A stretch of 64,000 bases of DNA from contig NZ_AWNK01000004.1 in the NCBI RefSeq assembly GCF_000469585.1, positions 40,311 to 104,310 on the forward strand, written 5' to 3'. Position 1 is the stretch's first letter. Every line of letters begins with the position of its first letter. The translations under genes and the position numbers were made by a program. The notes under the pieces were generated by a model. The model saw only the letters and a list, made by a program, of their open reading frames with translations. It searched no databases and was not told the DNA's origin. Source of the stretch: Chrysiogenes arsenatis DSM 11915. GTDB lineage: Bacteria > Chrysiogenota > Chrysiogenetes > Chrysiogenales > Chrysiogenaceae. Positions 10,360 to 49,900 of the stretch are shown in pieces.

Positions 10360-10373
10360 AAGAACACCTCTTA

Positions 10374-12278: not shown

Positions 12279-12320
12279 ATCATTCCTGTGAGAGCGGGTT
12301 CTAAAGGCATATCGTGCACC

Positions 12321-12365
12321 GAAAAATAGTCCCCCAACGTGCCGCAGAATACGACACGCTGGGGG
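12321..12365 (-). terminator. Intrinsic terminator downstream of the haem-MCP gene
   Basis: 11-bp stem (CCCCCAACGTG / CACGCTGGGGG, one mismatch) with a 13-nt loop. On the minus-strand transcript it is followed by ACTATTTTTCGG. Confidence 0.5.
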
Positions 12366-12380
12366 TTGGTAACTGTGATG

Positions 12381-18658: not shown

Positions 18659-18662
18659 TAAA

Positions 18663-18698
18663 AACGGGCGAGGATTTCGATTCCCCCGCCCGTTCTAC
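18663..18698 (-). terminator. Intrinsic terminator for gyrB (hairpin shared with the convergent EAL-HDOD gene)
   Basis: Perfect 8-bp stem AACGGGCG / CGCCCGTT (18663-18670 / 18687-18694). On the minus-strand transcript it is followed by TTTTTATTAG. It lies 10 nt downstream of the gyrB stop. Confidence 0.55.
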
Positions 18699-18708
18699 TG
18701 TTGCCCCT

Positions 18709-21192
<2,484 letters not shown>

Positions 21193-23857: not shown

Positions 23858-24491
23858 ATTTTTCCAAATAGCTGGCGATAGCTTTTTTAAGCCAGTCTAA
23901 CGTAATATCGTTGCTGATTAAAAAGAGGTATCCGCTTGCATTAAAGTGTTCGAGGTGAAAAACCGTCTTAAAATAAATCGCATACGAATTCTGCACTTCA
24001 AAAGCAGAATTCAGCGATGTGTGAATTTGATCTTTCACAAAAAAACGGGGTGGCGAATACGTCACAACATCATCCAGCAACTCAGCAATTTTACTGATAC
24101 ATGCCCCGATGACGATATTACTTACTTCAATCAATCCCTCTTTTTCAAGCACATCGACATCAGGATAATCTGCGATAATGGTGTTGCTGCTGTCAAATAA
24201 CCGCAGAAGCTTCTTCCCTTCGCCATGGGGAAAGAGAAGCAGGCTTGAGCCGCTAAACTTACCACTGAAAAACTGCGTAATCATACTCATATCATTGACA
24301 TCGGGTATTTCTTTGCGAATGCAGCGGAATACCTCTGCAAATGGGATGACCTGAATGACAGGCACCGTCAGCGTGACATGCTGATCAATAACATCTGAAA
24401 TTCCGGCAGCCGCTTGCCCAAAAGAGATATTCATAATTTCTTGCAGAACATCCCGCTCTATTTCATTTAAGTAGCTTTTCTCTGCGTCCAT
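23850..24491 (-). CDS. cheC: CheC-family CheY-P phosphatase
   Basis: Two copies of the CheC signature [D/S]-x3-E-x2-N-x22-P. The first is DVLQEIMN followed by 22 residues then P. The second is EVSN followed by 22 residues then P. 213 aa. Confidence 0.75.
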   Translation of the reverse strand: MDAEKSYLNEIERDVLQEIMNISFGQAAAGISDVIDQHVTLTVPVIQVIPFAEVFRCIRKEIPDVNDMSMITQFFSGKFSGSSLLLFPHGEGKKLLRLFDSSNTIIADYPDVDVLEKEGLIEVSNIVIGACISKIAELLDDVVTYSPPRFFVKDQIHTSLNSAFEVQNSYAIYFKTVFHLEHFNASGYLFLISNDITLDWLKKAIASYLEKYA

Positions 24492-27216: not shown

Positions 27217-27258
27217 AGCTTCTCCTTCCAATCTCCTCTTTGTGGTTTCCTGCGCTGC

Positions 27259-30661: not shown

Positions 30662-31095
30662 AACAGTCGCTTCACCGCATGAATAATAGTGGTGACAACC
30701 CCGAAGATATCAACGTCGGCGCCATCTGGCACCTCAATCGGAGCATAGAACGAATTCATGGGAACCAGTCGCACGGTTGGTCTCATTTCGAGTTTTTTCA
30801 CCGTCAGCTCTCCATGAAACCCGGCAACCACAATATCACCGTGCTGAGCCTCAAGCGAACGATCAACAATCAAAATATCGCCCGGAGCAATACCCGCTTC
30901 TCTCATCGAATCCCCTTCCGCACGGACAAAAAAAGTGGCCGTAGGGTTGCGAATACACAGCTCATTAAGATCAAGCATCTTCTCTATATAATCTTGCGCA
31001 GGGGATGGAAAACCTGCCCGCACCGCTTCTACATACAGCGGAATTTGCAATGGTTTATCAGGGAGTTGGCATGTGCCAAGTATGGCAATACTCAT
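30658..31095 (-). CDS. umuD: UmuD (LexA-like S24 self-cleaving peptidase, Pol V accessory subunit)
   Basis: 145 aa. Ser/Lys dyad context (..AEGDSMREAGI.., ..GDIVVAGFHGELTVKKL..). Sits directly upstream of, and overlapping, umuC. Confidence 0.85.
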   Translation of the reverse strand: MSIAILGTCQLPDKPLQIPLYVEAVRAGFPSPAQDYIEKMLDLNELCIRNPTATFFVRAEGDSMREAGIAPGDILIVDRSLEAQHGDIVVAGFHGELTVKKLEMRPTVRLVPMNSFYAPIEVPDGADVDIFGVVTTIIHAVKRLL

Positions 31096-33540: not shown

Positions 33541-33696
33541 TTCACGCTGAGTTTGCATAGAGACAGTCACAATTGTGTTTAAAATAACGATATGAGACGG
33601 AGAGAGTGCTGGCAGAAATTTTGGACAATAAAACAGGCAGCGCCATAATAAACACTGCCCGTAGATAACCTAAATCGACTTTTTGCACACACCTCA

Positions 33697-34551
33697 TTAT
33701 TCCCGCAGGGATATTTCTTTGTCCCACTCCCAGTAAAACGTGAGGTAAGGTTCGTTTGGGCGCCTCCACCCGAGTGAGATATGGCCAAGCATGGCATCGG
33801 GAAATCTTGAGAGGATCTGGATCACCGATGCGCGGCGAGAAATACTCAAGATCTCAAAGCATTGATCCTGCACGCACGGTAAGATATCCCTAATGGCTAC
33901 GTTTAAATCATACACTCGCAAATCCACCCCTTGGCTCTGTGGCGGAGTGTTGACGTACAGAATGTCCAGTTTTTTTTCGCCATCCACAGTTGCGACACCA
34001 ATCCGATCAAGTAGGCTACCGAAGATCGGTTCAGTAACAACCTCAGGAAGCAGTAAGGGAATCGTGGCTATGGTAGCACCGGGAACCATGTGGTAAGAAG
34101 TCACGCGCTCAAGTTTCCCACTTCGAGCCCGCCATTTGTAGCCACGACACCACAATGCCGATGGTTGCCAATAAAGTTGTTCTCCAACTTGCGTGGACAA
34201 ATGAACGGGAAATTCAAGATAGAGCTTGATGACCTCTGGCGTCGCTGACGACACGTTTTCCGGAGAGACTACCGCCGATTCAATTGCCAGATAACAAAAA
34301 TTTGCACGATCCCAATCGGCAAGAATTGATTCAGATACTATGTTCGGAACACCGCCAATCTCCTGAAAATGGGAAAACAATTCCATAGGGTCGAGATTCT
34401 GTTTATCAAACCCAAAAAGCAATCTACTGCCATCAAAGCCATTTGGTGTAATTTGCAGCGAACGTTCCCACCCTACCACTCTTGAACCCAACCAATGAGC
34501 GATTTGATAATAAACATCAAGAGTCAGAAGCTTATTGGAGTGGTTACTCAT
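33697..34551 (-). CDS. Hypothetical protein, last gene of the export operon (no recognisable domain)
   Basis: 284-aa ORF overlapping the SecA-like gene by 8 nt. No TM helix or signal peptide is obvious and no motifs are recognised. Confidence 0.5.
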   Translation of the reverse strand: MSNHSNKLLTLDVYYQIAHWLGSRVVGWERSLQITPNGFDGSRLLFGFDKQNLDPMELFSHFQEIGGVPNIVSESILADWDRANFCYLAIESAVVSPENVSSATPEVIKLYLEFPVHLSTQVGEQLYWQPSALWCRGYKWRARSGKLERVTSYHMVPGATIATIPLLLPEVVTEPIFGSLLDRIGVATVDGEKKLDILYVNTPPQSQGVDLRVYDLNVAIRDILPCVQDQCFEILSISRRASVIQILSRFPDAMLGHISLGWRRPNEPYLTFYWEWDKEISLRE

Positions 34552-36502
34552 AACTGGTAAATGTCATCCTTTTTTGACTTTCGCGTGTTGCCGTGTTCAT
34601 AAATCGACGTAAGCGAAAGGCTTTTAACTCAGCTCGGTGCTGTGTAAGTCGAATCATTGTTGTCCATAATTTATTATGGGGCCAGTGTTCTGCCAAAGAA
34701 CACAGAACGCGCAAAACGCATTTTGGCAACACGGCTCGCATAATCCCATCCTCAAGCGAAACCAGTGGGTACGCTTCGCCCGGATTTCCCTGCCGCCCAG
34801 CGCGACCGAAAAGTTGCCAGTCAATGCGAGCCGACTCATGCGGCTCCATCATGATGACGCGTAACCCTCCTGCTGCCATTACTTCCCTCGAAAGCTTAAT
34901 GTCCGTTCCCCTTCCCGCCATGTTCGTCGCTATCGTGAGTTGCCCTTTCTCGCCTGCACGGGCAACAATATCGGCCTCTTCGGTGAGCTTTTTGGCGTTC
35001 AAGAGCTGATATTTTACCCTCTCCCGATCAAGCCGACCGGCAAGTTGTTCGCTATCTTCAATGGTACGTGTTCCTACCAGCACAGGAATCTCCCGCACAA
35101 GCAATTCCCGCAAAAGATTCAATAAACCAAGCTCTTTTTCCTGTTTCGTTACAAACAGCTGAAAAGGCTGCACGATCAGTTGCGATGGAAGTCGTGAAGG
35201 AATTCGGAGTGTGCGTATCCGATAGTTAAAAAACAGCTCATGAGCAATATTCTGCAGTGTGCCACTCGCACCCGTCAGGCGCACATAATGTTTAAAATAA
35301 TTCTGAAAACTCATCCGCGCTAACGTTTTATTCGGGTGAGTGAGTGGTACACCAGCGCGAGCCTCTACTGCTTGATGCAGGCCGTAGCTCCACGATCTAC
35401 CCGGCATAGGACGGCCAGTGCCTTCATCAACAATCACCACCTCGTCGTCAAGCACTACATAATGCTGATCCTGAAGAAAGTAATCACGCGCTAGCACAGC
35501 CTGCGTAAATAAATCATGGCGTCTATGTCGGCCTCGCCAAATAGGGGGAAGCTCTTGAGCCATCTTTTCCATTAACTGTTCACCATGTGTCGTCCAACGC
35601 ACATCTCGGTGCAGCGAACTACACTGATAATCTCGGGGCGACTGTAATCTATCGACCAGCGTGCGTGCGACAAGAATAGCTTCGTGTAGTACTGGATTAT
35701 GATCTGCTCCAGAAATAATCATCGGAGTAATGGCTTCATCAATCAAAATATTATCGGCTTCATCGACAATTGCGGTATGAATGCCGCGCATCAGTAATCG
35801 ATGTGCGGTTTGCCCTTGAAGCATACGCACACTCATGGTCAGAGGCGTCACGGAGCCGCCGAAAGTGATTTGATCGGTCAGATAGTCGGCTAAGAGCTGC
35901 TTGGCCGTTGAATACACAACATCGGCAAGATACTGCGTTGGCTTCTCTTCCTGAGTATGGGTTTGCAGCACCGTAGCAACGGAAACACTGCAAAATTCGT
36001 AGAGCGGTGCCAACTCAGTAGCGTCACGCTCGGCTAAGTAGTCATTGGCAGTAATGACGTGACAAGGTCGGTTGCTCCACCCGAAAAGAATAGCGAGTAA
36101 GCCAATCGTAAGAGTTTTCCCCTCCCCTGGTGCTAGCTGTACCAAATATCCATCAAACATGGCGAGAATGGCTGCCATTTGCACTTGATATGGTTCCATG
36201 CCCAGCAGTCGCACCGATGCAAGTTGAAGGAGAGCAAGTGTTTTATGCAATAACAACCGTTCTGCAGAGAGTTGACCGGCAAGCGCGTGCAAGCGCATTG
36301 CATTCAGCTGATGGATCAATGCTTCTGGAGTCAAATCAGCGAGAGCGCGATAGTGCCGACCAATACCATCTGCTTCTTGCAGATAGTCACTCACTAGTTT
36401 TTTTTCTCGCCAGCGATGCCGCACCAGATGCCATTTTACGATGCACCAATACGGCTCTTTCGGGAGTTTTTTTAACGATGGAAGTTGCAACGATGCGAGC
36501 AT
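34544..36502 (-). CDS. Truncated SecA-family ATPase (SecA DEAD motor, ~650 aa, lacks the C-terminal scaffold/wing/tail)
   Basis: Co-linear SecA motor motifs: ..LAPGEGKTLT.. (Walker A), ..HVITANDYLAERDA.., ..VDEADNILIDEAITPMIISG.., ..LTGASGTL.., ..VLVGTRTIEDSEQLAGRL.., ..LLNAKKLTEEADIVARAGEKGQLTIATNMAGRGTDIKL... The protein ends ~80 aa after the last motif. Confidence 0.8.
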   Translation of the reverse strand: MLASLQLPSLKKLPKEPYWCIVKWHLVRHRWREKKLVSDYLQEADGIGRHYRALADLTPEALIHQLNAMRLHALAGQLSAERLLLHKTLALLQLASVRLLGMEPYQVQMAAILAMFDGYLVQLAPGEGKTLTIGLLAILFGWSNRPCHVITANDYLAERDATELAPLYEFCSVSVATVLQTHTQEEKPTQYLADVVYSTAKQLLADYLTDQITFGGSVTPLTMSVRMLQGQTAHRLLMRGIHTAIVDEADNILIDEAITPMIISGADHNPVLHEAILVARTLVDRLQSPRDYQCSSLHRDVRWTTHGEQLMEKMAQELPPIWRGRHRRHDLFTQAVLARDYFLQDQHYVVLDDEVVIVDEGTGRPMPGRSWSYGLHQAVEARAGVPLTHPNKTLARMSFQNYFKHYVRLTGASGTLQNIAHELFFNYRIRTLRIPSRLPSQLIVQPFQLFVTKQEKELGLLNLLRELLVREIPVLVGTRTIEDSEQLAGRLDRERVKYQLLNAKKLTEEADIVARAGEKGQLTIATNMAGRGTDIKLSREVMAAGGLRVIMMEPHESARIDWQLFGRAGRQGNPGEAYPLVSLEDGIMRAVLPKCVLRVLCSLAEHWPHNKLWTTMIRLTQHRAELKAFRLRRFMNTATRESQKRMTFTSYE

Positions 36503-36504
36503 GC

Positions 36505-38652
36505 TTACTGGATCTGATAGCGTGATTGTAATAGCTGCCGCACTGCCAGAGCTATTTGCTCCAGAAGCGGTCTGGGCGACAATGCAATACGCATGACACC
36601 AGGAGCACCATCATAGAAAGCCGTTGGTGATTCTGAAAAACGCGCAATCACCTCAAAAAACGGCTCATCAGTTCGTAATCTCCCTTGAGCATCAGCTTGA
36701 GCAAAGAGCGTACCACCTCCTTGAAGTGCGAGTGCCGAAGAAGGGAGCTCGTGCTTCTGATACGGAATAAACTGCAGATCATGACTCTCCAGTGGCGAAG
36801 TAAACTGCCCAGGCAGACGGATTTCGGCACGTAGCAAGTTCGATCCGAAAAGATCTCCTGCCTGCTCTTGGGTAACAACACCGACAAACTGCTGCTTGCC
36901 CGGAGTAATCATTACCCCTAAACGCTCTCCACGCATAAAATGCGAATTGACCCGCGCCGGCATCACATCACTTACCCAGATCCCATCAGTCGGTGCCACC
37001 GTCTTGAGTCGATCAAGTCGTTTGTCAAGTTCATCCAGACGCCCCACCAGAAACGACTCGCGGTCATAGAGCGCTTTTAAATCACCCTGCTTACCATCCG
37101 TTGCTTTGCGGATAAGCCAACGAGTTTCCACCAATTGTTGCCCTGTCAGTTCATACTCCAGTTCTAATTCTGGATTGATAAACTCCATCAACACACTGCC
37201 TTGCTGCACGGTATCGCCAGAACGAACGACCAGCGCTGTCAAGGTTCCACCGGCTTCCGCATACAACGGCATCCGCTGCTCAGACAAAAGCACCCCCGGC
37301 GCAACAAGGGCATACGGCAGAGGAAATGTTGCCAATACCAGCAGAATGAGCAGCGGGGTAACGGCAGAAACAACGATGGCACGACGGCGATTCTGCCGTA
37401 ATTCGCTGCTTTTACGAAGATATTGCACGAGTTTCAACGTGGGGCCAATGAGCCACATGTAGCACATTGCGAGTAACATTAAAACACCGAGAAACAGTGA
37501 AAGGTCGGCCATATAAAGCAAAATCGCCACCATAACGAACAGGCGGTAACCAAAACTTGCGGCACCATACCCATAATACCAGTAACGTTCGTTACGGTTT
37601 TCCGCCGGCTCCTGCGCATCTTTGGTGCCAAGAAGTACTACGTTCGCAATATAATGCCACTGACGCCCCGCTTTCTGATAGAGATTCGGCAAATCAATCA
37701 GATCGGAGAGGACATAATAGGCATCAAATTTCAGCAACGGATTTCCATTAAAAACAAAACTCGAAATAGAACCAATAATCATGATGTTAAAAGCAAGACC
37801 ATTGACAAACCCGGGTGCTGTCAACCCCCAAACAATCGCCGCCAACGCCGCAAAAAACAACTCAACATACAGACCAGAGACTCCGACAAATGCGCGGTGC
37901 CACTTACTGCGCATTGACCATGACGAGCTCACATCAATGTAAGGAAGCGGAGCCAGCGCGATAAACATCACCCCAAGCGTATAGACATCACCACCAGAAC
38001 GGCGACATGCTATTGCATGCCCCATTTCATGAAGAAATTTCAAGAGAAACATGGCGACATAAAGCCACAAAAGGTTATCGACGGCTAAAATCCCTTGTGC
38101 CTGACTCGTAAACGATCCGAAATGGTCAATCACCGACTTCGCACCAAACAAAACCACAAGCAACCAACCAACAAAAGACCATCGCGAAAAAAAACGTTGC
38201 AGCCATCCGATATTGTTCTTCAGAAATTCATTCGGATTCCAAAGTGGAATTCTAAAATAGAGAAATGCCAGCAGGTGAGAAAGCTTTTCCTTGCGCCGCT
38301 GCTCCGCGTAGCGCTCGAAAATTGATTCGCTCTTGCCCTGTGAGCGGAAGAACAGAAGGCTCATCTGATGCAGTTGGGATAATAACATAATGACGGCATC
38401 TTGACTCGGTGCATCTTCGGGATACTCTTCCGTAAATGCTATCCAAAGCTCTTCAACCGTTCTTTCCGGAGTAAGGCGCGCAAGGAACAGATACGCCGGT
38501 TCCTGAACGCGGTAGTACTTCTCAGAACAACTATCTTGCAGCACATACCAGACCTGATCGCGATAGATCTGTTTATGAATGCGGATCGTCGGCAGTAAAC
38601 CAAGCCGCAGTGTCGCAACCTGATACCAAGATTCGCTGAATGTCGCAGACAA
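36505..38652 (-). CDS. Fusion of a site-2-protease-like M50 intramembrane metalloprotease and an HlyD-type periplasmic adaptor (MFP)
   Basis: ~170-aa cytoplasmic N-domain. Polytopic region with HExxH (..LHEMGHAIAC..) and a downstream NPLLKFD (third zinc ligand). A later TM helix and a ~300-aa C-terminal region with biotinyl/lipoyl-like and beta-barrel MFP character (..GTLTALVVRSGDTVQQGSVLMEF..). Confidence 0.75.
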   Translation of the reverse strand: MSATFSESWYQVATLRLGLLPTIRIHKQIYRDQVWYVLQDSCSEKYYRVQEPAYLFLARLTPERTVEELWIAFTEEYPEDAPSQDAVIMLLSQLHQMSLLFFRSQGKSESIFERYAEQRRKEKLSHLLAFLYFRIPLWNPNEFLKNNIGWLQRFFSRWSFVGWLLVVLFGAKSVIDHFGSFTSQAQGILAVDNLLWLYVAMFLLKFLHEMGHAIACRRSGGDVYTLGVMFIALAPLPYIDVSSSWSMRSKWHRAFVGVSGLYVELFFAALAAIVWGLTAPGFVNGLAFNIMIIGSISSFVFNGNPLLKFDAYYVLSDLIDLPNLYQKAGRQWHYIANVVLLGTKDAQEPAENRNERYWYYGYGAASFGYRLFVMVAILLYMADLSLFLGVLMLLAMCYMWLIGPTLKLVQYLRKSSELRQNRRRAIVVSAVTPLLILLVLATFPLPYALVAPGVLLSEQRMPLYAEAGGTLTALVVRSGDTVQQGSVLMEFINPELELEYELTGQQLVETRWLIRKATDGKQGDLKALYDRESFLVGRLDELDKRLDRLKTVAPTDGIWVSDVMPARVNSHFMRGERLGVMITPGKQQFVGVVTQEQAGDLFGSNLLRAEIRLPGQFTSPLESHDLQFIPYQKHELPSSALALQGGGTLFAQADAQGRLRTDEPFFEVIARFSESPTAFYDGAPGVMRIALSPRPLLEQIALAVRQLLQSRYQIQ

Positions 38653-38655
38653 TTC

Positions 38656-40536
38656 CTACCTCCAGAGCGCAAGACGGATACGATTCAGCGTCTTGTGTGT
38701 ATAGATCCAGAAGTACGACCGTGGTTGCACATGAATTTTTGCCACCCCAGTCATACCAGGGCGCCACCACGTTTCACCATCCTCTTCAAGTTGAGCAATC
38801 ACGGTAAACCGCGCCCCCTCCTGCGACTTCACCTCAGCCATTGGAATTACGCGACTGATTCGCAGGGGAATTTTCCGCCCTGGCTGGCTGACCAGCGCAA
38901 ATTCGCCAATACTCCCCTCGCGCACATGGTGAATGTCGTCATGCGCTACTTCAACTACCACATATACATCTTCGGTTTGTGCAATACGCAGCAGGGGTTG
39001 CCCTTTGGAAACAGGTGCTGAAATCAGCTCGCGCCGCTCCCCTTCGACCACTACCCCAGTAAAGGGAGCGTGCATATGTGCTTGCGAAAGCTGATAATTC
39101 ACCCGCTCCATACGGGCTTTCACCTGCTCAATCCGTGCCAAAGCAATCGCCAAGTCCACACTGGTAAACTCTGCCCGAGCCCGATCAGCTTCGGTTACGT
39201 TTCGCTGTAACTCCGCTTGGAGTTCGGCAAGTTGCATCAGCAAATCTTGCACATCAAGCGTCAGCAACGGATCACCTTCCACCACCTCGTCACCACTGGT
39301 GACATAGGCATCGATGATCACCCCCTCAAAAGGGGCCGTAATGAGCCGAGTATTGTCCGTAACAAACTGCCCAGTCCCTTCAACAGTATGCATGGTGGAG
39401 AATGTCAGCGAGCCAAACAACAGTAAAGATCCAGCCAGTACCAACGACTTAACCAGCAGATTTTCTGCCCCCGCAAGACGGCCAATTGTGCGCAGAGCAA
39501 CCGTCCGCAACCGATCGCGCCATTCGGCATCTTGCAAATACAATTGTTCCAGCCGCGGCATCACGGTTCGTGCCAGAAAGTGCACCGCCTCGCAAGGAAG
39601 TTCCGGCAAATCATCACGGTAGTTGACGAGTGTCAATGCGAACACGGTATGGCCGTGAGAGTTCACAAGCGGAAAAGTCATAATAGATCGTGCCGCAAGG
39701 TGGGTTTGTAGTTGTTGATGAGCAAGGGTAATTACCTTTCCATCCGAAGCACGGTGACTTGAATAATGAATGGCGGCAACCTGATCCACCGACTCCTCTA
39801 AAGCCGCTTCAAACAGTCTAACGGTATCGGTTTTTTGCTCAAAGCGCTCATAGTGGCTGATCCCCTTTACCCGTGTATACGCCCCCTCTTTCCAGCCCAG
39901 CACGACCTGATCAAAGGCGCTCTGGTAATTAACGATGCCATTGGCTAACGCATACACAGCCGCTTGAAAGTTTTCGGATTGATATATTTCGCTCAGCAAG
40001 TCGAGCAAGCTTGCGAGCATGTTTTCGTGCGCCGTTTTCCGCGCATCAACTGCTTTTGACTCTGTACCTAACAACGCTGACGTGTTCAAGACGGACTCAT
40101 CCTGCACAAAGTCGAGCATTAACTGGGCACGCACAAGAATGTCGTTCAAACGTGTTGCAGCATCACAATCAATCGCTAAAATCAAAAAATATGGGGTAGG
40201 ACACAACGCACGGAGCGCGACGAAGCCGATTGACCCATCGATATGGGGATGGGGTGGACGGTGGGCAAATCCACTGGCTTCGGCCCGCTGCAGAAAAAGG
40301 AAAAATTCCTGCGTGTCTAACAAAGGCTTTGACGGGCTTTTCTGTTCTAAATCGCTGGTAGCAACCAAAAGCAGTTGATGTTCCTGTACCAAAATGAGTT
40401 CCGCACTCGGCACACGGCATACGTTCTTGACGAGCACCAGATAATCTATCCACGATGCTTGACCTGCTTGAGACTGAGTGACCCGTACGTGGTATAATTC
40501 CTGTAATCGTTGGCGAAATGCTTCTTTAGAGGCCAT
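38656..40536 (-). CDS. HlyD-type periplasmic adaptor with a large (~370 aa) N-terminal cytoplasmic sensory-like domain (GAF-like; uncertain)
   Basis: Single TM helix (..LLVKSLVLAGSLLLFGSLTF..) followed by a coiled-coil and MFP lipoyl/beta-barrel segments (..APFEGVIIDAYVTSGDEVVEGDPLLTLD.., ..APFTGVVVEGE..). The N-terminal 370 aa are soluble and alpha/beta-like. Confidence 0.7.
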   Translation of the reverse strand: MASKEAFRQRLQELYHVRVTQSQAGQASWIDYLVLVKNVCRVPSAELILVQEHQLLLVATSDLEQKSPSKPLLDTQEFFLFLQRAEASGFAHRPPHPHIDGSIGFVALRALCPTPYFLILAIDCDAATRLNDILVRAQLMLDFVQDESVLNTSALLGTESKAVDARKTAHENMLASLLDLLSEIYQSENFQAAVYALANGIVNYQSAFDQVVLGWKEGAYTRVKGISHYERFEQKTDTVRLFEAALEESVDQVAAIHYSSHRASDGKVITLAHQQLQTHLAARSIMTFPLVNSHGHTVFALTLVNYRDDLPELPCEAVHFLARTVMPRLEQLYLQDAEWRDRLRTVALRTIGRLAGAENLLVKSLVLAGSLLLFGSLTFSTMHTVEGTGQFVTDNTRLITAPFEGVIIDAYVTSGDEVVEGDPLLTLDVQDLLMQLAELQAELQRNVTEADRARAEFTSVDLAIALARIEQVKARMERVNYQLSQAHMHAPFTGVVVEGERRELISAPVSKGQPLLRIAQTEDVYVVVEVAHDDIHHVREGSIGEFALVSQPGRKIPLRISRVIPMAEVKSQEGARFTVIAQLEEDGETWWRPGMTGVAKIHVQPRSYFWIYTHKTLNRIRLALWR

Positions 40537-40548
40537 AAAACCACACCA

Positions 40549-41433
40549 TCACAGCTGCACTCGCGCTTTTAATCCTGGCCGAAACCGATTATCCACGTTG
40601 CGATATTCAACCTTCACTTCGACTAATCCACTTGCCGGATCAGCTACTGGTGAGAGAAAAGAAATCGCCCCTTGTGCGCGCGTGGATTCCACTGCAAAAT
40701 CAACTTTTTGCCCTATCGTAAGCTTCGCTGCGATAGCACTCGGAATACTGATGCGGATGTAAATATACGAAGTATCAACCAGTTCGATGATCGGCTCACC
40801 CGCCTGAGCCCATTCCCCTTTTTTGAGGCGAATTTGGGTGATAAATCCTTTACTGGGCGCGAGTAGAGTCCGTTGGGCAAGGACTTGTCGGCCAATTTTA
40901 TAATCGTAGTCTTGTTTTTTTTCTTCTAACTCAAGCAGTGCAACTTCGCTCTCTGTTGTGACTCTATTGATGATCATTTGATTGAGCTCATCAAGACTGA
41001 TTGATCTACTTTCATGGTACAACTCAAGAGCGGATTTTACTTGCTCCACTTGCAGCAGTAACCGAGCGCGAGCCCCGTCCAATGCACTCTTGTCCCGCAT
41101 CAGCGTTTCAAGGCGCGACAGTTCAAGTTGCTCAATATGTTGCTCCAGCACCAAGAGCGGTGTTCCCTGATCGACGTAGGCTCCTTCTGCGATCTTGACT
41201 TCACTGACCACACCGCTAACCGCCATTGCGAGCAAGTAGCGCTCACGAGGGTACACCACACCTACCATCGCATCACTTATTGCAACCGTCTCATGTGGAC
41301 TCACCTCTGGACTAAATGAACGGAAATCGCCACGCGAACGAGTGCTTGGAGCCTCGCTCGCTATAGCGAATACATTCAAGGACAAAAACAGCAGGAAAAA
41401 AATACAGTTGGTCAATCGCATAGTGCCCTTCAA
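40549..41433 (-). CDS. HlyD/RND-type periplasmic adaptor subunit (membrane fusion protein), secreted or lipid-anchored
   Basis: N-terminal signal/anchor (..CIFFLLFLSLNVFAIA..), lipoyl motif (..ISDAMVGVVYPRERYLL.., ..APSKGFITQIRLKKGEWAQAGEPIIEL..), and an alpha-hairpin. Confidence 0.8.
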   Translation of the reverse strand: MKGTMRLTNCIFFLLFLSLNVFAIASEAPSTRSRGDFRSFSPEVSPHETVAISDAMVGVVYPRERYLLAMAVSGVVSEVKIAEGAYVDQGTPLLVLEQHIEQLELSRLETLMRDKSALDGARARLLLQVEQVKSALELYHESRSISLDELNQMIINRVTTESEVALLELEEKKQDYDYKIGRQVLAQRTLLAPSKGFITQIRLKKGEWAQAGEPIIELVDTSYIYIRISIPSAIAAKLTIGQKVDFAVESTRAQGAISFLSPVADPASGLVEVKVEYRNVDNRFRPGLKARVQL

Positions 41434-41437
41434 AATT

Positions 41438-43060
41438 CTACAGTGCTTCTACGTCAAACTGAATGCCGAGTTCCTGCAACAGGCTACCATCCGAAAGCTG
41501 AAGACTGATTTTTGCCAGTTCATATTGAATCTCGGCATCCACCATACGGATTATACCCACGTTGAGATTATCTTCGCGCTCAATCATATCAATGTAGCGC
41601 GCTACACCGCGGTCAAACCGTTCCCGCTCAATTTCAAGCAGTTCCTTGAGGACAGTGGTATTCTGCCGATGACGATCCAACTCTTGATACGCTTGATCTA
41701 CCTGTGCAAGCCGCAACTGAAGTTGATTTGAAAGGTCTACCTTTACCGCTTCAGCCTGATATTGATTTTGGGTAATTCGTGAAAGCGCTATGGATTCTTT
41801 CGAACGCGCACTTTGATTACCACCTAAAGGGATGGAAAACTCAACACCAGCATACCAGTTGGGATAACGCTCCGAAAATGCTTCTTCAAAAGTTCTGCCG
41901 TAGCGCTCATCATACCGAAGGCTACTTTGGCCATAGCCCGCAACAAAATCGAGTTTTGGACGCAACTCATCGCGGGCTATCGCCAGAGAATGTTCTTCCA
42001 GCGCAATACGTTCTATTGCAATTCCGTAATTCGGCCAAACACTGAGAACCTGCTCAAAGTAAGTCTGAAAACTTTCCGGCTGTTGCCACGCGGTAGTGTC
42101 AGGCTCTGAAGTCGTCTGAAAAACAACGTGCTGATATTCATTGGCTGAGAGGTTGAGAACCCCCTTAATCGCACTTTTCACTTGTTCATACCCGCGCTCT
42201 ACGACAAATGATTCTGCCTGACGAAGTAGAAGGGTAGAACGGGCTTCGGTCATAGCAGTTTGCGGTAAGCGCCCAGCTTGCACGCGCCGCTCAATATCGG
42301 TGAGGATATTATTCGCATTTTTCAATGAATCTGCATTCAAAGCTTTCATCTGTTCGGCACGGTACAGCCGCCAGTAGAGGCTGAGCGCATCGTATGACTT
42401 ACTCAGAATCTGTTGCTGAGTTTCCTGTTTGCGGATTTCAATCTGTTTTTCTGATTGTGCGATCCGATTCTCAATTTGAGCCGCCCCAAATCCGCGCAAA
42501 ATTGGTTGACGGATACGGAAATTCAGCGAACCGACATTGTCGTTAATCCCAGTAGGATCATTCACCGAGCTCGTATTATTATAGCGTTTATGCCCTTCAT
42601 ATTCGACAGAGACCTCAGCCCCAGAAACGACTAACGTGCGCACGCCAAACTGAAAACGACCATTGCGGTCTATCGTCGTGTCATTAGGGGCTAACGGATT
42701 ATTTTCGGTTTTTCGCTCATCAGCACGGAGTATTGAAAAAAATTCCATCTCGTATGCGGCGCGATCATGCTGTAGTTGCGCCTCAGCAATTTTTTTCTGC
42801 TCTGCACTTACGAGCACCTCAGGATTGCGTAGGAGCACAAGGTGCACGAAAGACTCTTTATTTAGAGCCACAGCACCTTGTTGTATTTGCGTCAGCACTT
42901 GTTCGTGGCGATTCATGTCACCATGAGAAGGTTGACTCTCGGCCCACGCGGGAATGGCCAGACACGCTGCCGAAACCGCTAAACCTGCAAAAACTTTTTG
43001 GGGGCAAGAAAGTATATTCCGTATCATCGTCAACCTCTTTGTATCGGCATAGATGGCCAT
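41438..43060 (-). CDS. TolC-like outer-membrane efflux factor
   Basis: Signal peptide. 540 aa with the two-fold repeated helical/beta structure and coiled-coil-rich Q/L/E/R repeats typical of outer-membrane factors. 4 nt upstream of the MFP gene. Confidence 0.85.
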   Translation of the reverse strand: MAIYADTKRLTMIRNILSCPQKVFAGLAVSAACLAIPAWAESQPSHGDMNRHEQVLTQIQQGAVALNKESFVHLVLLRNPEVLVSAEQKKIAEAQLQHDRAAYEMEFFSILRADERKTENNPLAPNDTTIDRNGRFQFGVRTLVVSGAEVSVEYEGHKRYNNTSSVNDPTGINDNVGSLNFRIRQPILRGFGAAQIENRIAQSEKQIEIRKQETQQQILSKSYDALSLYWRLYRAEQMKALNADSLKNANNILTDIERRVQAGRLPQTAMTEARSTLLLRQAESFVVERGYEQVKSAIKGVLNLSANEYQHVVFQTTSEPDTTAWQQPESFQTYFEQVLSVWPNYGIAIERIALEEHSLAIARDELRPKLDFVAGYGQSSLRYDERYGRTFEEAFSERYPNWYAGVEFSIPLGGNQSARSKESIALSRITQNQYQAEAVKVDLSNQLQLRLAQVDQAYQELDRHRQNTTVLKELLEIERERFDRGVARYIDMIEREDNLNVGIIRMVDAEIQYELAKISLQLSDGSLLQELGIQFDVEAL

Positions 43061-43081
43061 GGCTCAAAAAAATATAAACTT

Positions 43082-43120
43082 ACCACCGTAAACTCCATTT
43101 ATTATAGAGATTACGGTGGT
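43082..43120 (-). terminator. Strong hairpin between sapC and the tolC-like gene. Candidate intra-operon attenuator or partial terminator.
   Basis: Perfect 10-bp inverted repeat ACCACCGTAA / TTACGGTGGT with a 19-nt loop. The minus-strand transcript continues AAGTTTATATTTTTTTGAG. Confidence 0.4.
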
Positions 43121-43128
43121 GAATGTTT

Positions 43129-43875
43129 TTATGACTCAGCGATTACAGGCTCTGTTTCACCTGGCTTCAGGCTCGTCTGCCCATCTTTTAGCATCGCCAA
43201 GCGTTCAAGTTGGCTGAGTGAGGTTAAATGAGCAAAGATAGGCGCAAAGTAGCGCTTTTCGCGTATTTCAAGAAAGCGCTTATCGGAAAGATTATTCAAA
43301 CGCTCCTCATTGATCACATAACAACCAGTTACGTTGCGAATCTGCCCACCGTAGCGCACACGCATACTGAGCGGAGTAAAGAGATTATTTTCAGCCATGA
43401 ACGTACAGAATGCCTTCGTGAAGATCTCCATTTGTTGCATTTCGCCAAGGTATTTTTTTACATTGTCGATGATCACGGTTGGCTCACCTTTTTCAAACAA
43501 CGCTTGGCCATCTTTTGTCCCAACACAGTCCGCATCTTCATCAATGCAAACTGTAAATTGATCAGCTTGATCACTTTTAGCGAGGGCAAAAGGGTAACGG
43601 CGGATAATGGCTGGCACATATGAAGCCTTCCAACTCCCATCTTCAGCGATAAATAGATTTTCTCCGGCATCAAGGCCAAACATCACAACAGGCTTAAATT
43701 CATCCTGCTCTTTGTCTTCAAGGAAAACAATCGGATACACCGATGCCGCCCGAGCAAATTCATGCACCATGAGTGACGCAATATGAAACTTACTGGCAAA
43801 GGCAAAGCTGCTAATAGGTGTCACTTTTGTCTTCGCATGTTTGTCCTTGTTAAGCGGAACCAATTTTTTAAACAT
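43129..43875 (-). CDS. SapC-family protein
   Basis: 248 aa, co-linear with SapC-family (PF07277-type) proteins (..FARAASVYPIVF.., ..AIIRRYPFAL..). GGAGG RBS. 26 nt downstream of the giant gene. Confidence 0.7.
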   Translation of the reverse strand: MFKKLVPLNKDKHAKTKVTPISSFAFASKFHIASLMVHEFARAASVYPIVFLEDKEQDEFKPVVMFGLDAGENLFIAEDGSWKASYVPAIIRRYPFALAKSDQADQFTVCIDEDADCVGTKDGQALFEKGEPTVIIDNVKKYLGEMQQMEIFTKAFCTFMAENNLFTPLSMRVRYGGQIRNVTGCYVINEERLNNLSDKRFLEIREKRYFAPIFAHLTSLSQLERLAMLKDGQTSLKPGETEPVIAES

Positions 43876-43901: not shown

Positions 43902-46900
43902 TTAAAACTCAAATTCTTCCTCTGTGTAGAAGTCGAAAATGAAACTATCTTGAATACTTGAGCCAAAGCTCGAAAACTGGAAGTCTCCATAGAAGTTAAC
44001 CACCTTGCTGGAAGTATACGGCATTTGCAGGTTGAAACCTGGCTCTAAGCCTACTGGCGCTTGCTGCATAAATCCAAAGTCGAAGTTGATGCCACCAAAC
44101 ATTCCGTCAGAGATGCCAAGATCGCTCAAGTTCATAAAGGAACTCATGGTGGCTTTCTGTAAACGTGACAAGCTTGCATGATCAAGGAATGTTGTCGCAT
44201 TGTGCAAACGCAGAGCATCCATATTTTCTATCGATAATTCTTGGATTGTTTTACTTGCACTAGCCGAAGCGCCTCCCCCTTGAGATCCACTGAAGCGCAC
44301 TGACTCAAAAGCACTCAATTTGAATTCCGCTCTCACTGGACCATGAACAACGGCGTGATTACCCACAGAAATCACGTACACTCGCTGATCAATACCACGG
44401 ATACCAAATATATAGCTATCACCAGTAGCATCATCAACAACACTATACAGTTGCCCAGGACCGACAATGCCATGAATCTGCGCTGCATCTATCTTCAGTA
44501 AGTCAGCGCGGATAGCTTCAAGTTGAGGTATCAGGCTTGCTACTGGCTGATCAATAAAAAACGGTATCGTCTTGATAAACACCTGATTGGCAACAATATT
44601 GGCTGCTTGTGTCCCGAGCGAACTCTGGATACGATATTCCGAACTTTCAAGCCACACATCACCACCCGTCGCAACGTGAGCAATCAACAAAATACTATCG
44701 GTCGAGGTAAAGTAAATATCGCCTCGCTCTGATAATGTCTGTGCACTTGCTTTCATCTCTATGACCGGAGCCGTGTAACGAACTTCCCCCTGCCCCGTCA
44801 GCGACAGAGTGGCCTCTTGCACAATACTTTTTCCAGATGAAAGGACAACGGTACTATCGACGCCTGAGATATTCATAGCAAGAATCAGTGAACCATGTAC
44901 GGCATGGAGTTCGATAGTGCCATGACTACTCGTTCCATTCAGCATTGAATCCGTAATTTCTTCAACAAGAGCTTCATTGGTCATCCGCAGCACCGTTAGC
45001 TCACCGAACTGGTCATTATCACCAATGCGCAAATCTTCTTGGGCGGCAAGGAAGATACCACCATGACCAATATCCGCACTCAGTGAATCGACTTCAACCA
45101 CAAAAGGACGCCCTGATTCACCAAGTTGACTACCAGTAACCCGCAGATACTTTGCTAGGATATTCACGGTACTTGAAGGAGCACTGGTTATGACGCCACC
45201 AACCAGACTGACCGCAGTTGGAGTTGTTACATGAGAGATGGACATACTGTGAGTTGCTTCGATGCGAATATTGTTCTGAGTTTGCAATAGAGCTTTAGCT
45301 GTCATGGAGACTGATTGGGCACTAATGTCGAGCGTCGCATCTCCTGTAATATGAACCAGACTGTCGATAAACTCCACATTGCCGTTCCGCGCTAACAACG
45401 ACACATTACCACTGCTGGCAATGTCGCTCTGCACGATAATGGATCCATTTTCAACTTCTATTTGTAAGTGCTCGCCAGAGAAATTCAACGCACCATCAAG
45501 TATAAAGTTTCGCTGCTCACCGGAAACGCCTGCCTGCACCATTATGACAGTTACGGTGTCGGTTGCCAATTCAAGCTCAGACAAACGCAGATCACCACTA
45601 GTGGTAATGGTATTTAACCCCGCTATGGTGAATACCCCCTGCAGGGTAGTAGTCCCGCCACTGTGAGCACTTAGATCGCCACCAACCGTGAGGTTTCCTT
45701 CAATTGTCAAAGTTTCATCGGTTTTGATAGTCGTGTCACCGGTGATAGTGATTGCATCGCTGAGTATTACTGCTCCGGTTCCGGTGATAGCAAGGTCGCC
45801 GCCAATCTCTAGTGTGCCTTCGACGGTAGTTGCTCCGCCGACTGTCAGGGTAACATTGGCGCTGGTGAAAGTTCCTTCTATCAGCAGGGCATCGGTTGAT
45901 GTTAGTTCAGTACTTCCTTCAACGATAAAGATTCCGTCTAGGATGCTCTCGCCTGCACTGCTTGTGGTAAGGGCGCCACCAACAGTGAAGTTTCCTTCAA
46001 GTGTCAGGTCAGCATCGGTCTCGATAGTCGCGTCACCAATAATAGTGATTGTATCGTTGAGCATCACCGCTCCGGTTCCGGTGATAGCAAGGTCGCCGCC
46101 AATATCTAGTGTGCCTTCGACGGTAGTTGCTCCGCCGACTGTCAGGGTAATGTTGGCGCTGGTGAAAGTTCCTTCTATCAGCAGGGCACCGGTTGATGTT
46201 AGTTCAGTACTTCCTTCAACGATAAAGGTTCCATCTAGGATGCTCTTGCCAACACTGCTTGTGATGAGGGCGCCACCAACAGTGAAGTTTCCTTCAATCG
46301 TCAGGTCGGCATCGGTCTCGATAGTCGCGTCACCGCTAATGGTGATTGCATCGCTGAGCATCACCGCTCCAGTTCCGGTGATAGCAAGGTCGCCGCCAAT
46401 ATCGAGCGTACCTTCGACTGTAGTTGCTCCACCGACTGTCAGGGTGACGTTGGCACCGCTGAAGGTTCCGGTAATCGATAAGTCTGCTTTCGCATCGATA
46501 GTCGTGTCACCGCTAATGGTGATTGCATCGCTGAGTATTACTGCTCCGGTTCCAATGATAGCAAGGCTGCCTGCAACATCCAGCTCACCTTCGATAGTGG
46601 TTGTTCCGCCGATTGTCAGGGTGACATTGGCGCTGGTGAAAGTTCCTTCTATCAGCAGGGCACCGGTTGATGTTAGTTCAGTACTTCCGTCAACGATAAA
46701 GGTTCCATCTAGGATGCTCTTGCCAACACTGCTTGTGATGAGGGCGCCACCAACAGTGAAGTTTCCTTCAAGTGTCAGGTCGGCATCAGTCTCGATAGTC
46801 GCGTCACCGCTAATGGTGATTGCATCGCTGAGCATCACCGCTCCGGTTCCGGTGATAGCAAGGTCGCCGCCAATATCTAGTGTGCCTTCGACGGTAGTTG

Positions 46901-49900
46901 CTCCGCCGACTGTCAGGGTAACGTTGGCGCTGGTGAAAGTTCCTTCTATCAGCAGGGCACCGGTTGATGTTAGTTCAGTACTTCCGTCAACGATAAAGGT
47001 TCCGTCTAGGATGCTCTTGCCAACACTGCTTGTGATGAGGGCGCCACCAACAGTGAAGGTTCCGGTAATCGATAAGTCTGCTTTCGCATCAATGTTGATG
47101 TCACCGTCAATGGCTATTGCATTACTGAGTATCACCGCTCCGGTTCCAGTGATATCAAAGTTGCCAGCAACATCCAGCTCACCTTCAATAGTGGTTGCTC
47201 CACCAACTGTCAGGGTGACGTTGGCACCGCTGAAGGTTCCAGTAATCGATAAGTCTGCTTTCGCATCGATGTTGGTGTCACCGTCAATGGCGATTGCATT
47301 ACTGAGTATCACCGCTCCGGTTCCAGTGATGCCAAGGTTGCCAGCAACATCCAGCTCACCTTCGATAGTGGTTGTTCCGCCGACTGTCAGGGTGACCTTG
47401 GCACCGCTGAAGGTTCCGGTAATCGATAAGTCTACTTTCGCATCGATGTTGGTGTCTCCGTCAATGGCGATTGCATTACTGAGTATCACTGCTCCGGTTC
47501 CAGTGATATCAAAGTTGCCAGCAACATCCAGCTCACCTTCAATGGTAGTTGTTCCTCCGACAGTCATGGTGACGTTGGCACCGTTGAAATCTCCGTCAAT
47601 CGTCAGGGCTGCATCAGTATCGATAGTCGTGTCACCGGTGATAGTGATCGAATCGCTGAGCATTACCGCTCCAGTTCCGGTGATGCCAAGGTTGCCGCTA
47701 ATATCCAATGTGCCAGCGACTGCGGTTGTTCCACCGACTGCCAAGGTGACGTTGGCGCCAGTAAAGGTTCCGATAATCGCCAAGCCTGCTTTCGCATCGA
47801 TGGTCGTGTCACCGGTGATAGTGATCATATCGCTGAGCGTTACCGCTCCGGTTCCGGTGATGCCAAGGTTGCCGCTAATATCCAGTGTACCAGCGACTGC
47901 GGTTGTTCCACCGACTGTCAGGGTGACATTGGCACCGCTGAAGGTTCCGATAATCGCCAAGCCTGCTTTCGCATCGATAGTCGTGTCACCGCTAATGGTG
48001 ATTGCATCGCTGAGCGTTACCGCTCCGGTTCCGGTGATAGCAAGGTTGCCTGCAACATCCAGCTCACCTTCAATAGTGGTTGCTCCACCGACTGTCAGGG
48101 TGACGGCGGCGCCGGTAAAGTCTCCTTCTATCAGCAGGGCACCGGTTGATGTTAGTTCAGTACTTCCTTCAACGATAAAGGTTCCGTCTAGGATGCTCTT
48201 GCCAACACTGCTTGTGATGAGGGCGCCACCAACAGTGAAGTTTCCTTCAAGTGTCAGGTCGGCATCGGTCTCGATAGTCGCGTCACCGCTAATGGTGATT
48301 GTATCGCTGAGCATCGCCGCTCCGGTTCCGGTGATAGCAAGGTCGCCGCCAATATCGAGCGTACCTTCGACGGTAGTTGTTCCTCCGACTGTCATGGTGA
48401 TGTTGACACCAGTGAAATCTCCATCTATCGTCAAGTCTGCTTTCGCATCGATGTTGGTGTTGCCGTCAATGGTGATTGCATTGCTAAGTGCAACGTTTCC
48501 GGTTCCGGTGATGCCAAGGTCGCCGGTACTCACCAGCCTACCTTCGACGTTAGTTGCGCCTCCGACAGTCATGGTGACACCACCGCCGGTGTATCTCCCT
48601 TTAAGTGTTAAATCATTTGTGGCAGAAAGGTTGCTACTTCCTGTTGTGCTAAAAGTACCGCGCAAGATACTTGCACCATCGCTGTTCGCGACGAAGTCGC
48701 CAGCAACGGTTAACTCGCCTATGATTGTCAGGTCTGCTTTCGAATCGATGGTCGTGTCACTGCGCAGCTTGAAATCACCAATAAGAACCATATTGCCCTG
48801 ACTGTTGATTGTACTGGTGCCGCTTACCGTGAGTGACAGCGCACTTGCCTGATTGCTGGTGAGCGCTCCAAGGGTATCAATGTGCAACGTTCCGGCAACT
48901 GCATTTCTACCAAAGAGGTACGTGTCGCCATCTATAAAGAGCGTCGCATCACCGTTGAGCGTAGTGACGTTCAGGCTCGCAATGCGCACCTCGCTCTGAG
49001 TATTTGCGCCAAGGGAAATATCGCCATTGGTGGCGCGCATGGTGGTTTTGCCACCAAGTCGCAATACATCATCGGTATCATTGGCCAGTGCTATTGATTG
49101 GGCGGTGAATGAGTTATCGCCCGTCACGATAAGCTGTGTACTGGCGCCAGCGGTAATACTCTCTGGCGTAGTCACATTAAGGCGTCCCGCCGTATTGCTG
49201 CCTACAAACGTCACGGCATTATCAAGTTCCAATACCACTGCGCCAGCACTGTTGACCGTCAAGGTTCCGGCAGAGAAAAAGTCACCAACAGCATTGCCAA
49301 GACGAATTTCCCCGCCAGAGAATGCGGCATGACCTGTAATCGTAAGTTGTGCTTGCGTCAGGTTGGAAAGCACATTGACCGCTTGCGCACGAAGATCTCC
49401 ACCGACAGTGATATTCGATAGGGTTAAATTGTTGGCAGCCTTCAAATGGACATTTTTGGCTTGATGCACCGTCACGGCACCACCAAAGTTATGACTATTG
49501 TCAAATACAATATCCGATGCCGCATCAGCCGTGAGCTTTGTGATTCCCGTGACCGACAACTTGCCCGTCGCGCCATCATTAAGAGAACCCGATACCACCA
49601 GTTCTAGTGTTTTAGCAGTGCTTTCCCCCGCTAACACCATATCGCCATCGTGTGTTATGCGCACATTGCCATTGCTCACAAAGGTCAGAGTGCCAGTAGT
49701 GAAGGAATCGGTATCGATAGTAACGGCACTGCCTGAGAAACGGGAATTCTCTTCAACCGCAATCTGCGCCCCCTCTAGAGTACTCAGCTCATGAACCGCT
49801 GTCGCAACAAGATTGCCGGTGACGGTCAGATTTGCCAGTGTCAAGGTATTCACATCGCTGAGTGTTACATTCCGAGCGCCGAGCACGGTCACTGCGCCAC

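Follow-up and report, generated by a model that had tools for sequence, protein, structure and literature searches.

A conserved cassette with a short SecA, an M50 protease-adaptor fusion and a TolC-like protein as candidate exporter of giant proteins in Chrysiogenes arsenatis and other diderm bacteria

We describe an eight-gene operon in a stretch of 64,000 nt from Chrysiogenes arsenatis DSM 11915 (contig NZ_AWNK01000004.1, positions 40,311 to 104,310), which we call the window; all coordinates below refer to its first position unless a survey locus is named. The operon encodes a giant repetitive protein, a SapC family protein, a TolC-like outer-membrane factor (OMF), three membrane fusion proteins (MFPs), a short SecA-family ATPase and a protein of 284 aa. 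We propose that this cassette is a dedicated, envelope-spanning exporter which moves the giant protein in one step, similar to type I secretion, with the SecA-derived ATPase as its driver. We give this reading a probability of about 0.6. The gene set itself is real, is found across phyla and is apparently undescribed; it is a relative of the OMF/MFP tripartite machines.

Results

Organization of the operon

All eight genes share the minus strand and follow one another head to tail, with transcription running from the giant gene towards the 284-aa open reading frame (ORF). The relevant features are the following, where RRE denotes the recognition element of ribosomally synthesized and post-translationally modified peptides (RiPPs):

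43902-63995, minus strand: giant ORF of at least 6697 aa that continues past the window edge at its 5' end; candidate cargo
43905-43943, minus strand: extreme C-terminus of the giant, acidic and aromatic (...FIFDFYTEEEFEF-COOH), putative secretion signal
43129-43875, minus strand: SapC (PF07277, E-value 3e-69)
41438-43060, minus strand: TolC-like OMF (OEP, E-value 6.3e-27)
40549-41433, minus strand: MFP1, 294 aa (HlyD_3, E-value 1.9e-18)
38656-40536, minus strand: MFP2, HlyD part at residues 385-606
36505-38652, minus strand: M50-MFP, fusion of a putative RRE/PqqD-like domain, an M50 protease and an MFP
38017-38031, minus strand: zinc-binding motif HEMGH of M50-MFP, residues 208-212, invariant in 36 homologues
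37723-37743, minus strand: motif NPLLKFD of M50-MFP, residues 304-310, with the third zinc ligand; N304, P305, L306 and D310 invariant
34544-36502, minus strand: short SecA, 652 aa
33697-34551, minus strand: 284-aa ORF, its start overlapping the SecA stop by 8 nt
33633-33662, minus strand: terminator-like hairpin with a 12-bp stem and a trailing T run, 35 nt past the last stop

Gene order and coordinates had been reported correctly for all eight genes in a first-pass annotation of the window, and profile searches with Pfam and NCBIfam models bear out its domain calls for SapC, the OMF, the MFPs, the M50 protease and SecA. Its gap range of 2-26 nt has to be corrected, i.e., the intergenic gaps are, in operon order, 26, 68, 4, 12, 3, 2 and -8 nt. 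Given the tight gene spacing and the terminal hairpin, a single operon, as claimed there, is nevertheless the natural reading. The short SecA and M50-MFP are 100% identical to C. arsenatis database entries. The names assigned by NCBI are generic, e.g., 'SapC family protein', 'efflux RND transporter periplasmic adaptor subunit' (for MFP2) or 'hypothetical protein'.

Conservation of the cassette

For the comparison with other genomes, we used a survey of 95 non-redundant loci with flanks of about 10 kb (1.19 Mb), gathered by scans of genome and metagenome contigs. The genome-contig scan relied on two narrow peptide patterns and contributed 9 loci; most of the survey stems from the metagenome scan. 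The core of the cassette, i.e., OMF, MFP1, MFP2, M50-MFP and short SecA, is present in Chrysiogenota, Gamma- and Betaproteobacteria, Desulfobacterota and Verrucomicrobiota. The short SecA directly adjoins the M50-MFP gene in 58 of the 60 loci that offer at least 2.3 kb of downstream sequence, such that the co-occurrence of a short SecA with an M50-HlyD fusion, which the first-pass annotation had named as a check of its proposal, holds in several phyla. MFP2 is found in 84/86 testable loci. OMF and MFP1 are not seen by tblastn in some loci, where divergent copies are present.

The full order giant-(SapC)-OMF-MFP1-MFP2-M50MFP-SecA recurs in Desulfosarcina, Eth-SRB1, Oceanospirillum, Marinomonas and, in permuted form, Hydrogenophaga. 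Annotated cassettes come from Marinomonas, Thiomicrospira and Oceanospirillum as well as from Desulfosarcina ovata (giant of 9627 aa, with SapC), Desulfobacteraceae Eth-SRB1 (giant of 13222 aa), Hydrogenophaga (13361 aa, permuted) and another genome (8555 aa). SapC is encoded in about 18 loci and keeps its position in L002, L014, L015, L016, L018 and others. Beyond these examples, the family comprises over 1,300 clusters of M50-MFP; in metagenomes, at least 519 loci contain a relative. The best relatives of M50-MFP have a length of about 715 aa.

The giant protein and its C-terminal tail

The giant protein is free of cysteine, rich in G, T, A, L and S, and carries 14 DUF5649 repeats in its C-terminal half. 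DUF5649 is listed among the stalk domains of fibrillar adhesins (PMC8286594). No stop codon is encountered upstream, so the ORF runs past the window edge. The 6697 aa within the window contain no RTX-type GGxGxD repeats, and a homologue search with the C-terminal 700 aa returned no match, even to the giant itself. A comparable open-ended, Cys-free ORF leads into the cassette in about 19 loci, and giants in the same position elsewhere measure 8555-13361 aa.

These giants share an acidic and aromatic ending at the extreme C-terminus (e.g., FEYWIEDVVF, FDYWLEDLVI, FEYWTEELSI or FDFWLEDLML). Among all ORFs of at least 150 aa, taken from all frames of all 95 loci, an end of the form W-x-[ED]-[DEHNGS]-[LIVM]-x-[LIFVR] occurs in 19 of 1808, and every one of them is a cassette-adjacent giant. 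With the preceding residues included, the related motif reads [FY][DEN][FYL]W-x-[ED][DEN][LIVM]-x-[LIF]-COOH, for which the count is likewise 19 of 1808. Giants of the Marinomonas group end in ...DEESILESIL instead, and no NCBIfam model covers the giants' tails. Since the motif is found on no other ORF of these loci, it ties the cargo to the machine. In our view it is the strongest evidence that the giants would be the substrates, recognised via their C-termini as in type I secretion, and it lends weight to the earlier proposal of the adjacent giant as cargo candidate.

Two further observations concern the candidate cargo. In locus L007 (Verrucomicrobia), the neighbour at 1-8140 (minus strand) is a divergently transcribed protein of 2713 aa with an N-terminal LEPRVLLS motif and other repeats; the cargo of this locus may differ or lie elsewhere. 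Within the window, a 1037-aa ORF at 45688-48801 (plus strand) is contained in the giant gene in antisense orientation; it was rejected as a gene and is most likely a frame artefact of the repeat composition.

The short SecA

The ATPase matches SecA_DEAD (E-value 4.5e-71), SecA_PP_bind, i.e., the preprotein-binding domain PPXD (6.5e-23, residues 278-380), and P-loop_SecA (2.3e-44). It retains the two nucleotide-binding domains NBD1 and NBD2, PPXD and the start of the scaffold helix, and the motifs aligned to Bacillus subtilis SecA include Walker A (GEGKT), the DEAD box, TNMAGRGTDI and GRxGRQG. The alignment covers residues 33-558 of B. subtilis SecA and stops at residue 639 of the Thermotoga maritima protein. 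That is, about 40 residues of the scaffold helix remain, and there is no wing domain, two-helix finger or C-terminal linker. The description of the operon's sole NTPase as a truncated SecA is thus borne out.

With regard to curated models, the protein scores 450 bits against the full-length SecA model (cut-off 814) and 315-395 bits against the SecA2 models (cut-offs 725-1100), i.e., 315-450 bits over all SecA and SecA2 models with cut-offs of 725-1493. It has 7920 relatives at E-values of at most 1e-20, of which the best 120 all have a length of 471-707 aa, and a C-terminal tail of the form ...RQR..L....LSF is conserved in 50 loci.

One could read this protein as a SecA2-like motor that works through SecYEG, with the MFPs and the OMF carrying the cargo from the periplasm to the outside and the M50 protease removing a signal anchor. 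Its homology to SecA is genuine and its preprotein-binding domain intact, dedicated SecA2 paralogues are established for very large Gram-positive adhesins, and proteases of the site-2 protease (S2P) type cleave membrane-embedded helices. Such a two-step route is nevertheless unlikely. Canonical SecA inserts its two-helix finger into SecY, and it is just this element that the short SecA lacks, together with the wing domain; no SecY2 or Asp genes were found in any locus, i.e., in the window or the annotated neighbourhoods; and the conserved signal of the giants is C-terminal rather than N-terminal. In addition, the ATPase gene is closely linked to those of two MFPs that have domains in the cytoplasm, which suggests docking there.

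Absence of a conventional pump

Tripartite machines of this kind would be expected to include an inner-membrane transporter of the ATP-binding cassette (ABC), resistance-nodulation-division (RND) or major facilitator superfamily (MFS) type. The first-pass annotation noted that none is encoded, and we likewise find none within the operon or over the 31 kb on its downstream side; on the upstream side, the window ends within the giant gene. The window's only ABC genes, an ABC-2 pair of ATPase and permease at 364-2105 (plus strand), were considered as the missing pump and rejected: they lie on the opposite strand at a distance of 31 kb, belong to an unsuitable ABC type and are not conserved near other cassettes.

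The survey agrees with this picture. A scan of all ORFs for Walker A plus signature motifs revealed a single ABC ATPase in the whole 1.19 Mb, the flanks of which reach into the giant gene but not past it. This ATPase is part of an Opp-type importer located 9 kb from the cassette in L014, so no conserved ABC or RND partner is found within 10 kb in the 95 loci. The Pfam lists of the annotated neighbourhoods name no RND or MFS transporter.

The pump might still be encoded elsewhere, i.e., the cassette could belong to an ordinary type I secretion system (T1SS) whose ABC gene lies upstream of the giant or is unlinked, with the short SecA serving as unfoldase or targeting chaperone. Components of a T1SS can be unlinked, as tolC in E. 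coli, and the sequence upstream of the giants lies beyond our flanks. A preprint on Chlorochromatium likewise invokes unlinked parts for giants flanked by SapC and TolC (bioRxiv 10.64898/2026.03.19.712371). We consider this quite improbable given the scarcity of ABC ATPases around the cassettes, which extends to the permuted or divergent loci L010, L015 and L007, where no ABC gene is present either. Moreover, T1SS MFPs normally come one-to-one with an adjoining ABC gene, but here three MFPs with membrane or cytoplasmic domains of their own already occupy the inner-membrane position.

The M50-MFP fusion with its putative RRE, and accessory genes

M50-MFP consists of a putative RRE/PqqD-like domain (residues ~7-102), an intramembrane M50 (S2P) protease (~141-442) and an MFP part (444-712). 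These three parts are resolved in an AlphaFold2 model built from the alignment of 36 homologues (pLDDT 82.8). The protease shows the features of peptidase M50/S2P, i.e., HExxH and NxxPxxxxD within transmembrane helices and the S2P core fold, and it should be active, since the family keeps HEMGH and NPLLKFD without variation. An intact M50 zinc protease fused to an MFP had been recognised before with both motifs; what had been missed is the putative RRE domain at the N-terminus. The predicted RRE fold matches leader-binding B1 proteins of lasso-peptide pathways. The best NCBIfam match of M50-MFP is a daptide HExxH protease (E-value 6.8e-45, residues 23-401; 153.8 bits vs. a cut-off of 300), and its score for the YydH type is 23.7 vs. 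225 bits.

The 284-aa protein, previously listed as unknown, indeed has no match among Pfam or NCBIfam families, but its resemblance to prenyltransferases had been overlooked. It has 55 representatives among 1.84 billion clusters and no homologue in other full cassettes. A profile of 35 homologues matches the PDB entry 9vtd (LynF/TruF/PatF) with an E-value of 7.6e-4, followed by DciF (0.013) and PagF (0.1); the sole other PDB match is a chance one (E-value 1.3). About 50 N-terminal residues align with the cyanobactin prenyltransferases, including an E-x-S-x-K...R motif. Here, the invariant Glu29 and the near-invariant Arg43 of the family align to Glu51 and Arg65 of PagF, which we take to be its catalytic and diphosphate-binding residues. 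The cytoplasmic 284-aa protein thus appears to be a distant relative of the ABBA-fold cyanobactin peptide prenyltransferases (PatF/LynF/PagF), where membership is unproven because only these ~50 residues align. A single-sequence AlphaFold2 model is unusable (pLDDT 44). The idea that the protein is a diverged APH-like kinase was dropped, since BLAST shows no similarity.

Relatives of the gene occur in a different setting. In L056 and L065, the two exceptions to the gene counts given above and both from one sample, M50-MFP is followed by a 271-aa gene and the rest of the set is absent; this gene is homologous to the 284-aa protein in L065 (6876-7694; BLASTP 3e-10) and likewise in L056 (5075-5890). 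The pair may represent a separate, simpler system.

Several Gammaproteobacteria carry an APH/EcKL/choline-kinase-like gene inside or beside the cassette (L014 6639-7625, L012 12922-13839, L005 1696-2691, L009 4679-5641 and L042 10123-10908, the latter on the minus strand), and these copies are mutually homologous with 30-46% identity. A lipoprotein with a Cys followed by a Gly run is encoded beside the cassette in L013 (14144-16693), L026 (3022-5715), L071 (3213-4748) and L022 (414-2081); those of L013 and L026 share the motif GTVSDGPIxNARVxLD, and neither has a Pfam family. In L015 (Hydrogenophaga), a gene for a ShlB/POTRA two-partner-secretion transporter lies just beyond the cassette on the opposite strand (17955-19562, minus strand).

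Since a putative RRE, a leader-type protease and variable modifying enzymes are found together, the cassette seems to follow the logic of RiPP maturation, applied to a giant protein. The same parts could be taken at face value: the RRE would bind a small, unannotated precursor peptide, which would undergo prenylation (here) or phosphorylation (elsewhere) and cleavage by the M50 protease before leaving via MFPs and OMF, with the giant as a bystander. The lasso-peptide-like RRE fold, the daptide and YydH/LiaK proteases as best NCBIfam matches, the prenyltransferase-like last gene, the APH-like kinases of other loci and the two SecA-free pairs of L056 and L065 all fit this picture. We regard it as very unlikely all the same, because the operon gaps of at most 68 nt leave no space for a precursor gene, and neither such a gene nor radical-SAM enzymes, cyclodehydratases or other core RiPP enzymes were found in the operon. 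Furthermore, motors of the SecA type are not known to act on short peptides, and the cassette-specific motif sits on the giants.

The proposed conduit

The OMF comprises two OEP repeats, a signal peptide and a hydrophobic N-terminus at residues 23-41. Its TIGR01844 score (44.9 bits, E-value 7.9e-12) is below the cut-off of 225 bits, and we therefore consider it a divergent OMF. MFP1 matches HlyD_3 and HlyD_D23 (both ~2e-18), just passes the cut-off of TIGR01730 (RND_mfp; 95.4 vs. 94.9 bits) and starts with a signal or anchor segment at residues 7-25. In L002 (4808-5995), L016 (4748-5911) and L034 (4662-5996), MFP1 has an extra SH3_3 or SPOR domain; such domains usually bind peptidoglycan.

MFP2 is composed of a cytoplasmic N-terminal region of about 359 aa, a transmembrane helix (360-378) and a periplasmic MFP domain (385-606). 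The label of a sensory-like domain of ~370 aa given to this region in the first-pass annotation is fair, as is its cytoplasmic location; the length is 359 residues and the probable GAF identity had gone unnoticed. Judged by Pfam matches in homologues, residues ~175-340 appear to be a divergent GAF domain: GAF_2 is matched with 3.1e-8 in 2 of 9 aligned MFP2 homologues, and the homologue of Eth-SRB1 (L013) shows weak GAF matches. The N-terminal region of the window's MFP2 itself has no Pfam match, and an hhalign comparison of the MFP2 profile with one GAF protein gave a probability of 0.7%. All three MFPs score below the cut-off of TIGR01843 (type_I_hlyD) but have the MFP fold, in line with the claim of three distinct MFPs. 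SapC is cytoplasmic, i.e., it has no transmembrane segment and no signal peptide, and is probably an accessory of the cassette, for which we predict a role as chaperone or modifier of the cargo. Overall, the topology predictions are consistent with the exporter model.

A role other than protein export, i.e., signalling or quality control by GAF sensing plus regulated intramembrane proteolysis, or small-molecule efflux, is most improbable: the usual task of GAF domains is the sensing of small ligands, S2P proteases mostly belong to signalling cascades and NCBI labels MFP2 an RND efflux adaptor, but there is no linked transcription factor or anti-sigma substrate and no proton- or ATP-driven small-molecule pump, and the giant-gene synteny and the tail motif would be left unexplained.

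Genomic surroundings

The next gene past the hairpin is a convergent short-chain dehydrogenase/reductase gene, followed further on by SPFH/NfeD, UmuDC and other unrelated genes. The base composition of the operon is no different from that of its surroundings. A dense block of signalling genes is found at 2273-14192 and 21210-24491. It includes two methyl-accepting chemotaxis proteins (one with a hemerythrin domain), a hybrid histidine kinase, Hpt proteins and a CheA-CheW fusion, as well as GGDEF, GGDEF-EAL, PAS-GGDEF and CheC/CheX genes. Between these signalling genes and the operon lie gyrB (18709-21183), pnp (24994-27231) and the umuDC pair (29375-31095), all on the minus strand. Control of the surface-protein operon via cyclic di-GMP by the nearby signalling genes is conceivable.

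Discussion

Proposed mechanism

In the exporter that we propose, an OMF trimer would form the duct through the outer membrane and a mixed ring of the three MFPs the periplasmic tube together with its inner-membrane base. MFP1 would be a purely periplasmic part of the tube, and the base would be provided by the transmembrane parts of M50-MFP and MFP2. The tail of the cargo would be bound in the cytoplasm, most likely by the putative RRE, as leader-peptide binding is typical of this fold; tail recognition may also involve the GAF domain and the preprotein clamp of SecA. The short SecA would then dock on the MFP/M50 base and feed the unfolded chain into the portal at the expense of ATP. Docking on this base instead of SecYEG is suggested by the missing two-helix finger and wing domain. 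The M50 site could either remove the signal or release the cargo, and the variable accessories, i.e., SapC, the prenyltransferase-like protein and, elsewhere, the APH-like kinase, would probably chaperone or modify the cargo. The first-pass annotation had named three outcomes that would speak against its type-I-like, SecA-driven machine, namely missing co-occurrence of the short SecA and M50-HlyD genes, a conserved ABC or RND partner nearby and a match to a characterised export family. None of them was observed, which supports that proposal; that SecA is the energy source, that the M50 protease cleaves the cargo and that SecYEG is bypassed is what we infer from the parts.

Several points speak against this reading. 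It draws on sequence and predicted structure, and a recognised protein-conducting channel is absent, i.e., a portal made of M50 and MFP transmembrane helices would be without precedent. The tail of the window's giant is a variant of the motif in which Y replaces W, with the acidic and aromatic character kept, and some loci have no giant gene adjacent to the cassette. Since the window ends before the giant's N-terminus and the genes that precede it, the giant may have a Sec signal peptide, and an ABC gene may be encoded further away. Finally, the loci L056 and L065 indicate that M50-MFP can work in another context, i.e., without SecA or MFP2.

Significance

Tripartite OMF/MFP machines are taught with three inner-membrane engines, namely ABC, RND and MFS transporters. 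If the proposed reading is true, SecA plus an intramembrane protease would be a fourth, SecA-type motors would act away from SecYEG, and an export route would be at hand for some of the largest bacterial proteins (8,000-13,000 aa). Among these proteins are candidates for mediating contact between cells of syntrophic or symbiotic consortia, e.g., of Desulfosarcina, Eth-SRB1 and possibly Chlorochromatium. The C-terminal motif offers a testable handle, since it allows for cargo prediction from sequence and may serve as an export tag. All this concerns a large family that carries only generic names in current annotation. As had been presumed, we found no account of the combination in NCBIfam, Pfam or the literature; the full texts covered include few subscription journals, such that a prior description is possible.

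Comparison with known systems

The giant-adhesin T1SS (LapA/LapEBC, SiiE/SiiCDF, MpIBP) are similar in that an OMF and an MFP accompany a giant, repetitive and Cys-poor neighbour with a C-terminal signal, and no periplasmic intermediate is implied. The cassette differs by the lack of an ABC transporter, by three MFPs of which two carry extra domains, and by a SecA-family protein as sole NTPase; it has no GGxGxD repeats and another C-terminal motif. With C39-ABC exporters and C39-like RTX exporters it shares the idea that a protease or docking domain at the inner membrane couples recognition, cleavage and export. In the cassette, M50 and the putative RRE are fused to an MFP instead of an ABC protein, and cleavage is putative.

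SecA2/SecY2 systems for serine-rich repeat adhesins also place a dedicated SecA paralogue beside a very large adhesin gene. In contrast to them, the cassette has a shorter SecA and an OMF, resides in a diderm host and lacks SecY2 and Asp genes. The M50 leader proteases of RiPP pathways (daptide, YydH/LiaK) show a similar succession of an N-terminal RRE/PqqD-like domain and a HExxH intramembrane protease; here this unit, with its putative RRE, is fused to an MFP and linked to SecA and an OMF, with neither precursor nor core enzymes. SapC is shared with the sapCDEF locus of Campylobacter fetus, where SapDEF includes an ABC transporter.

Two recent preprints report related parts. Giants of Omnitrophota and Actinobacteria contain a truncated SecA that likewise consists of SecA_DEAD and the preprotein-binding domain without scaffold or wing, for which a role in exporting the giant itself was suggested (bioRxiv 10.1101/2023.11.21.568195). 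There, the SecA domain is embedded in the giant and partners of the OMF, MFP or M50 kind are not described, whereas here it is a separate protein of ~650 aa within a five-gene cassette. In Chlorobium chlorochromatii (Cag_662-665), SapC and a TolC-like protein are encoded beside giant beta-helical proteins without a known signal; a T1SS-like route with unlinked HlyD is assumed, and neither an M50-MFP nor a short SecA is described (bioRxiv 10.64898/2026.03.19.712371). The same work reports a horizontally acquired 'secA' (Cag_1676) that is co-expressed with the giants Cag_663 and Cag_665. This gene may encode a further member of the short SecA family.

TriABC-OpmH provides a precedent for hetero-oligomeric adaptors, and the structure of a TriA-TriB fusion (6vej) is among the sequence matches of MFP2. 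It differs in being RND-driven, in exporting small molecules and in having two MFPs, neither of them fused to an enzyme. Compared to the T1SS, the cassette shares the OMF and MFP modules but has no ABC gene nearby and no RTX repeats. It is conceivable, though at somewhat less than even odds, that it represents a distinct class of diderm secretion, in which a SecA ATPase without SecYEG, ABC, RND or MFS components would move unfolded giants of about 10,000 aa in one step into a TolC-type duct, S2P-MFP and GAF-MFP would form the portal and the RRE would read a new sorting motif at the extreme C-terminus of the cargo, after the manner of RiPP leader peptides.

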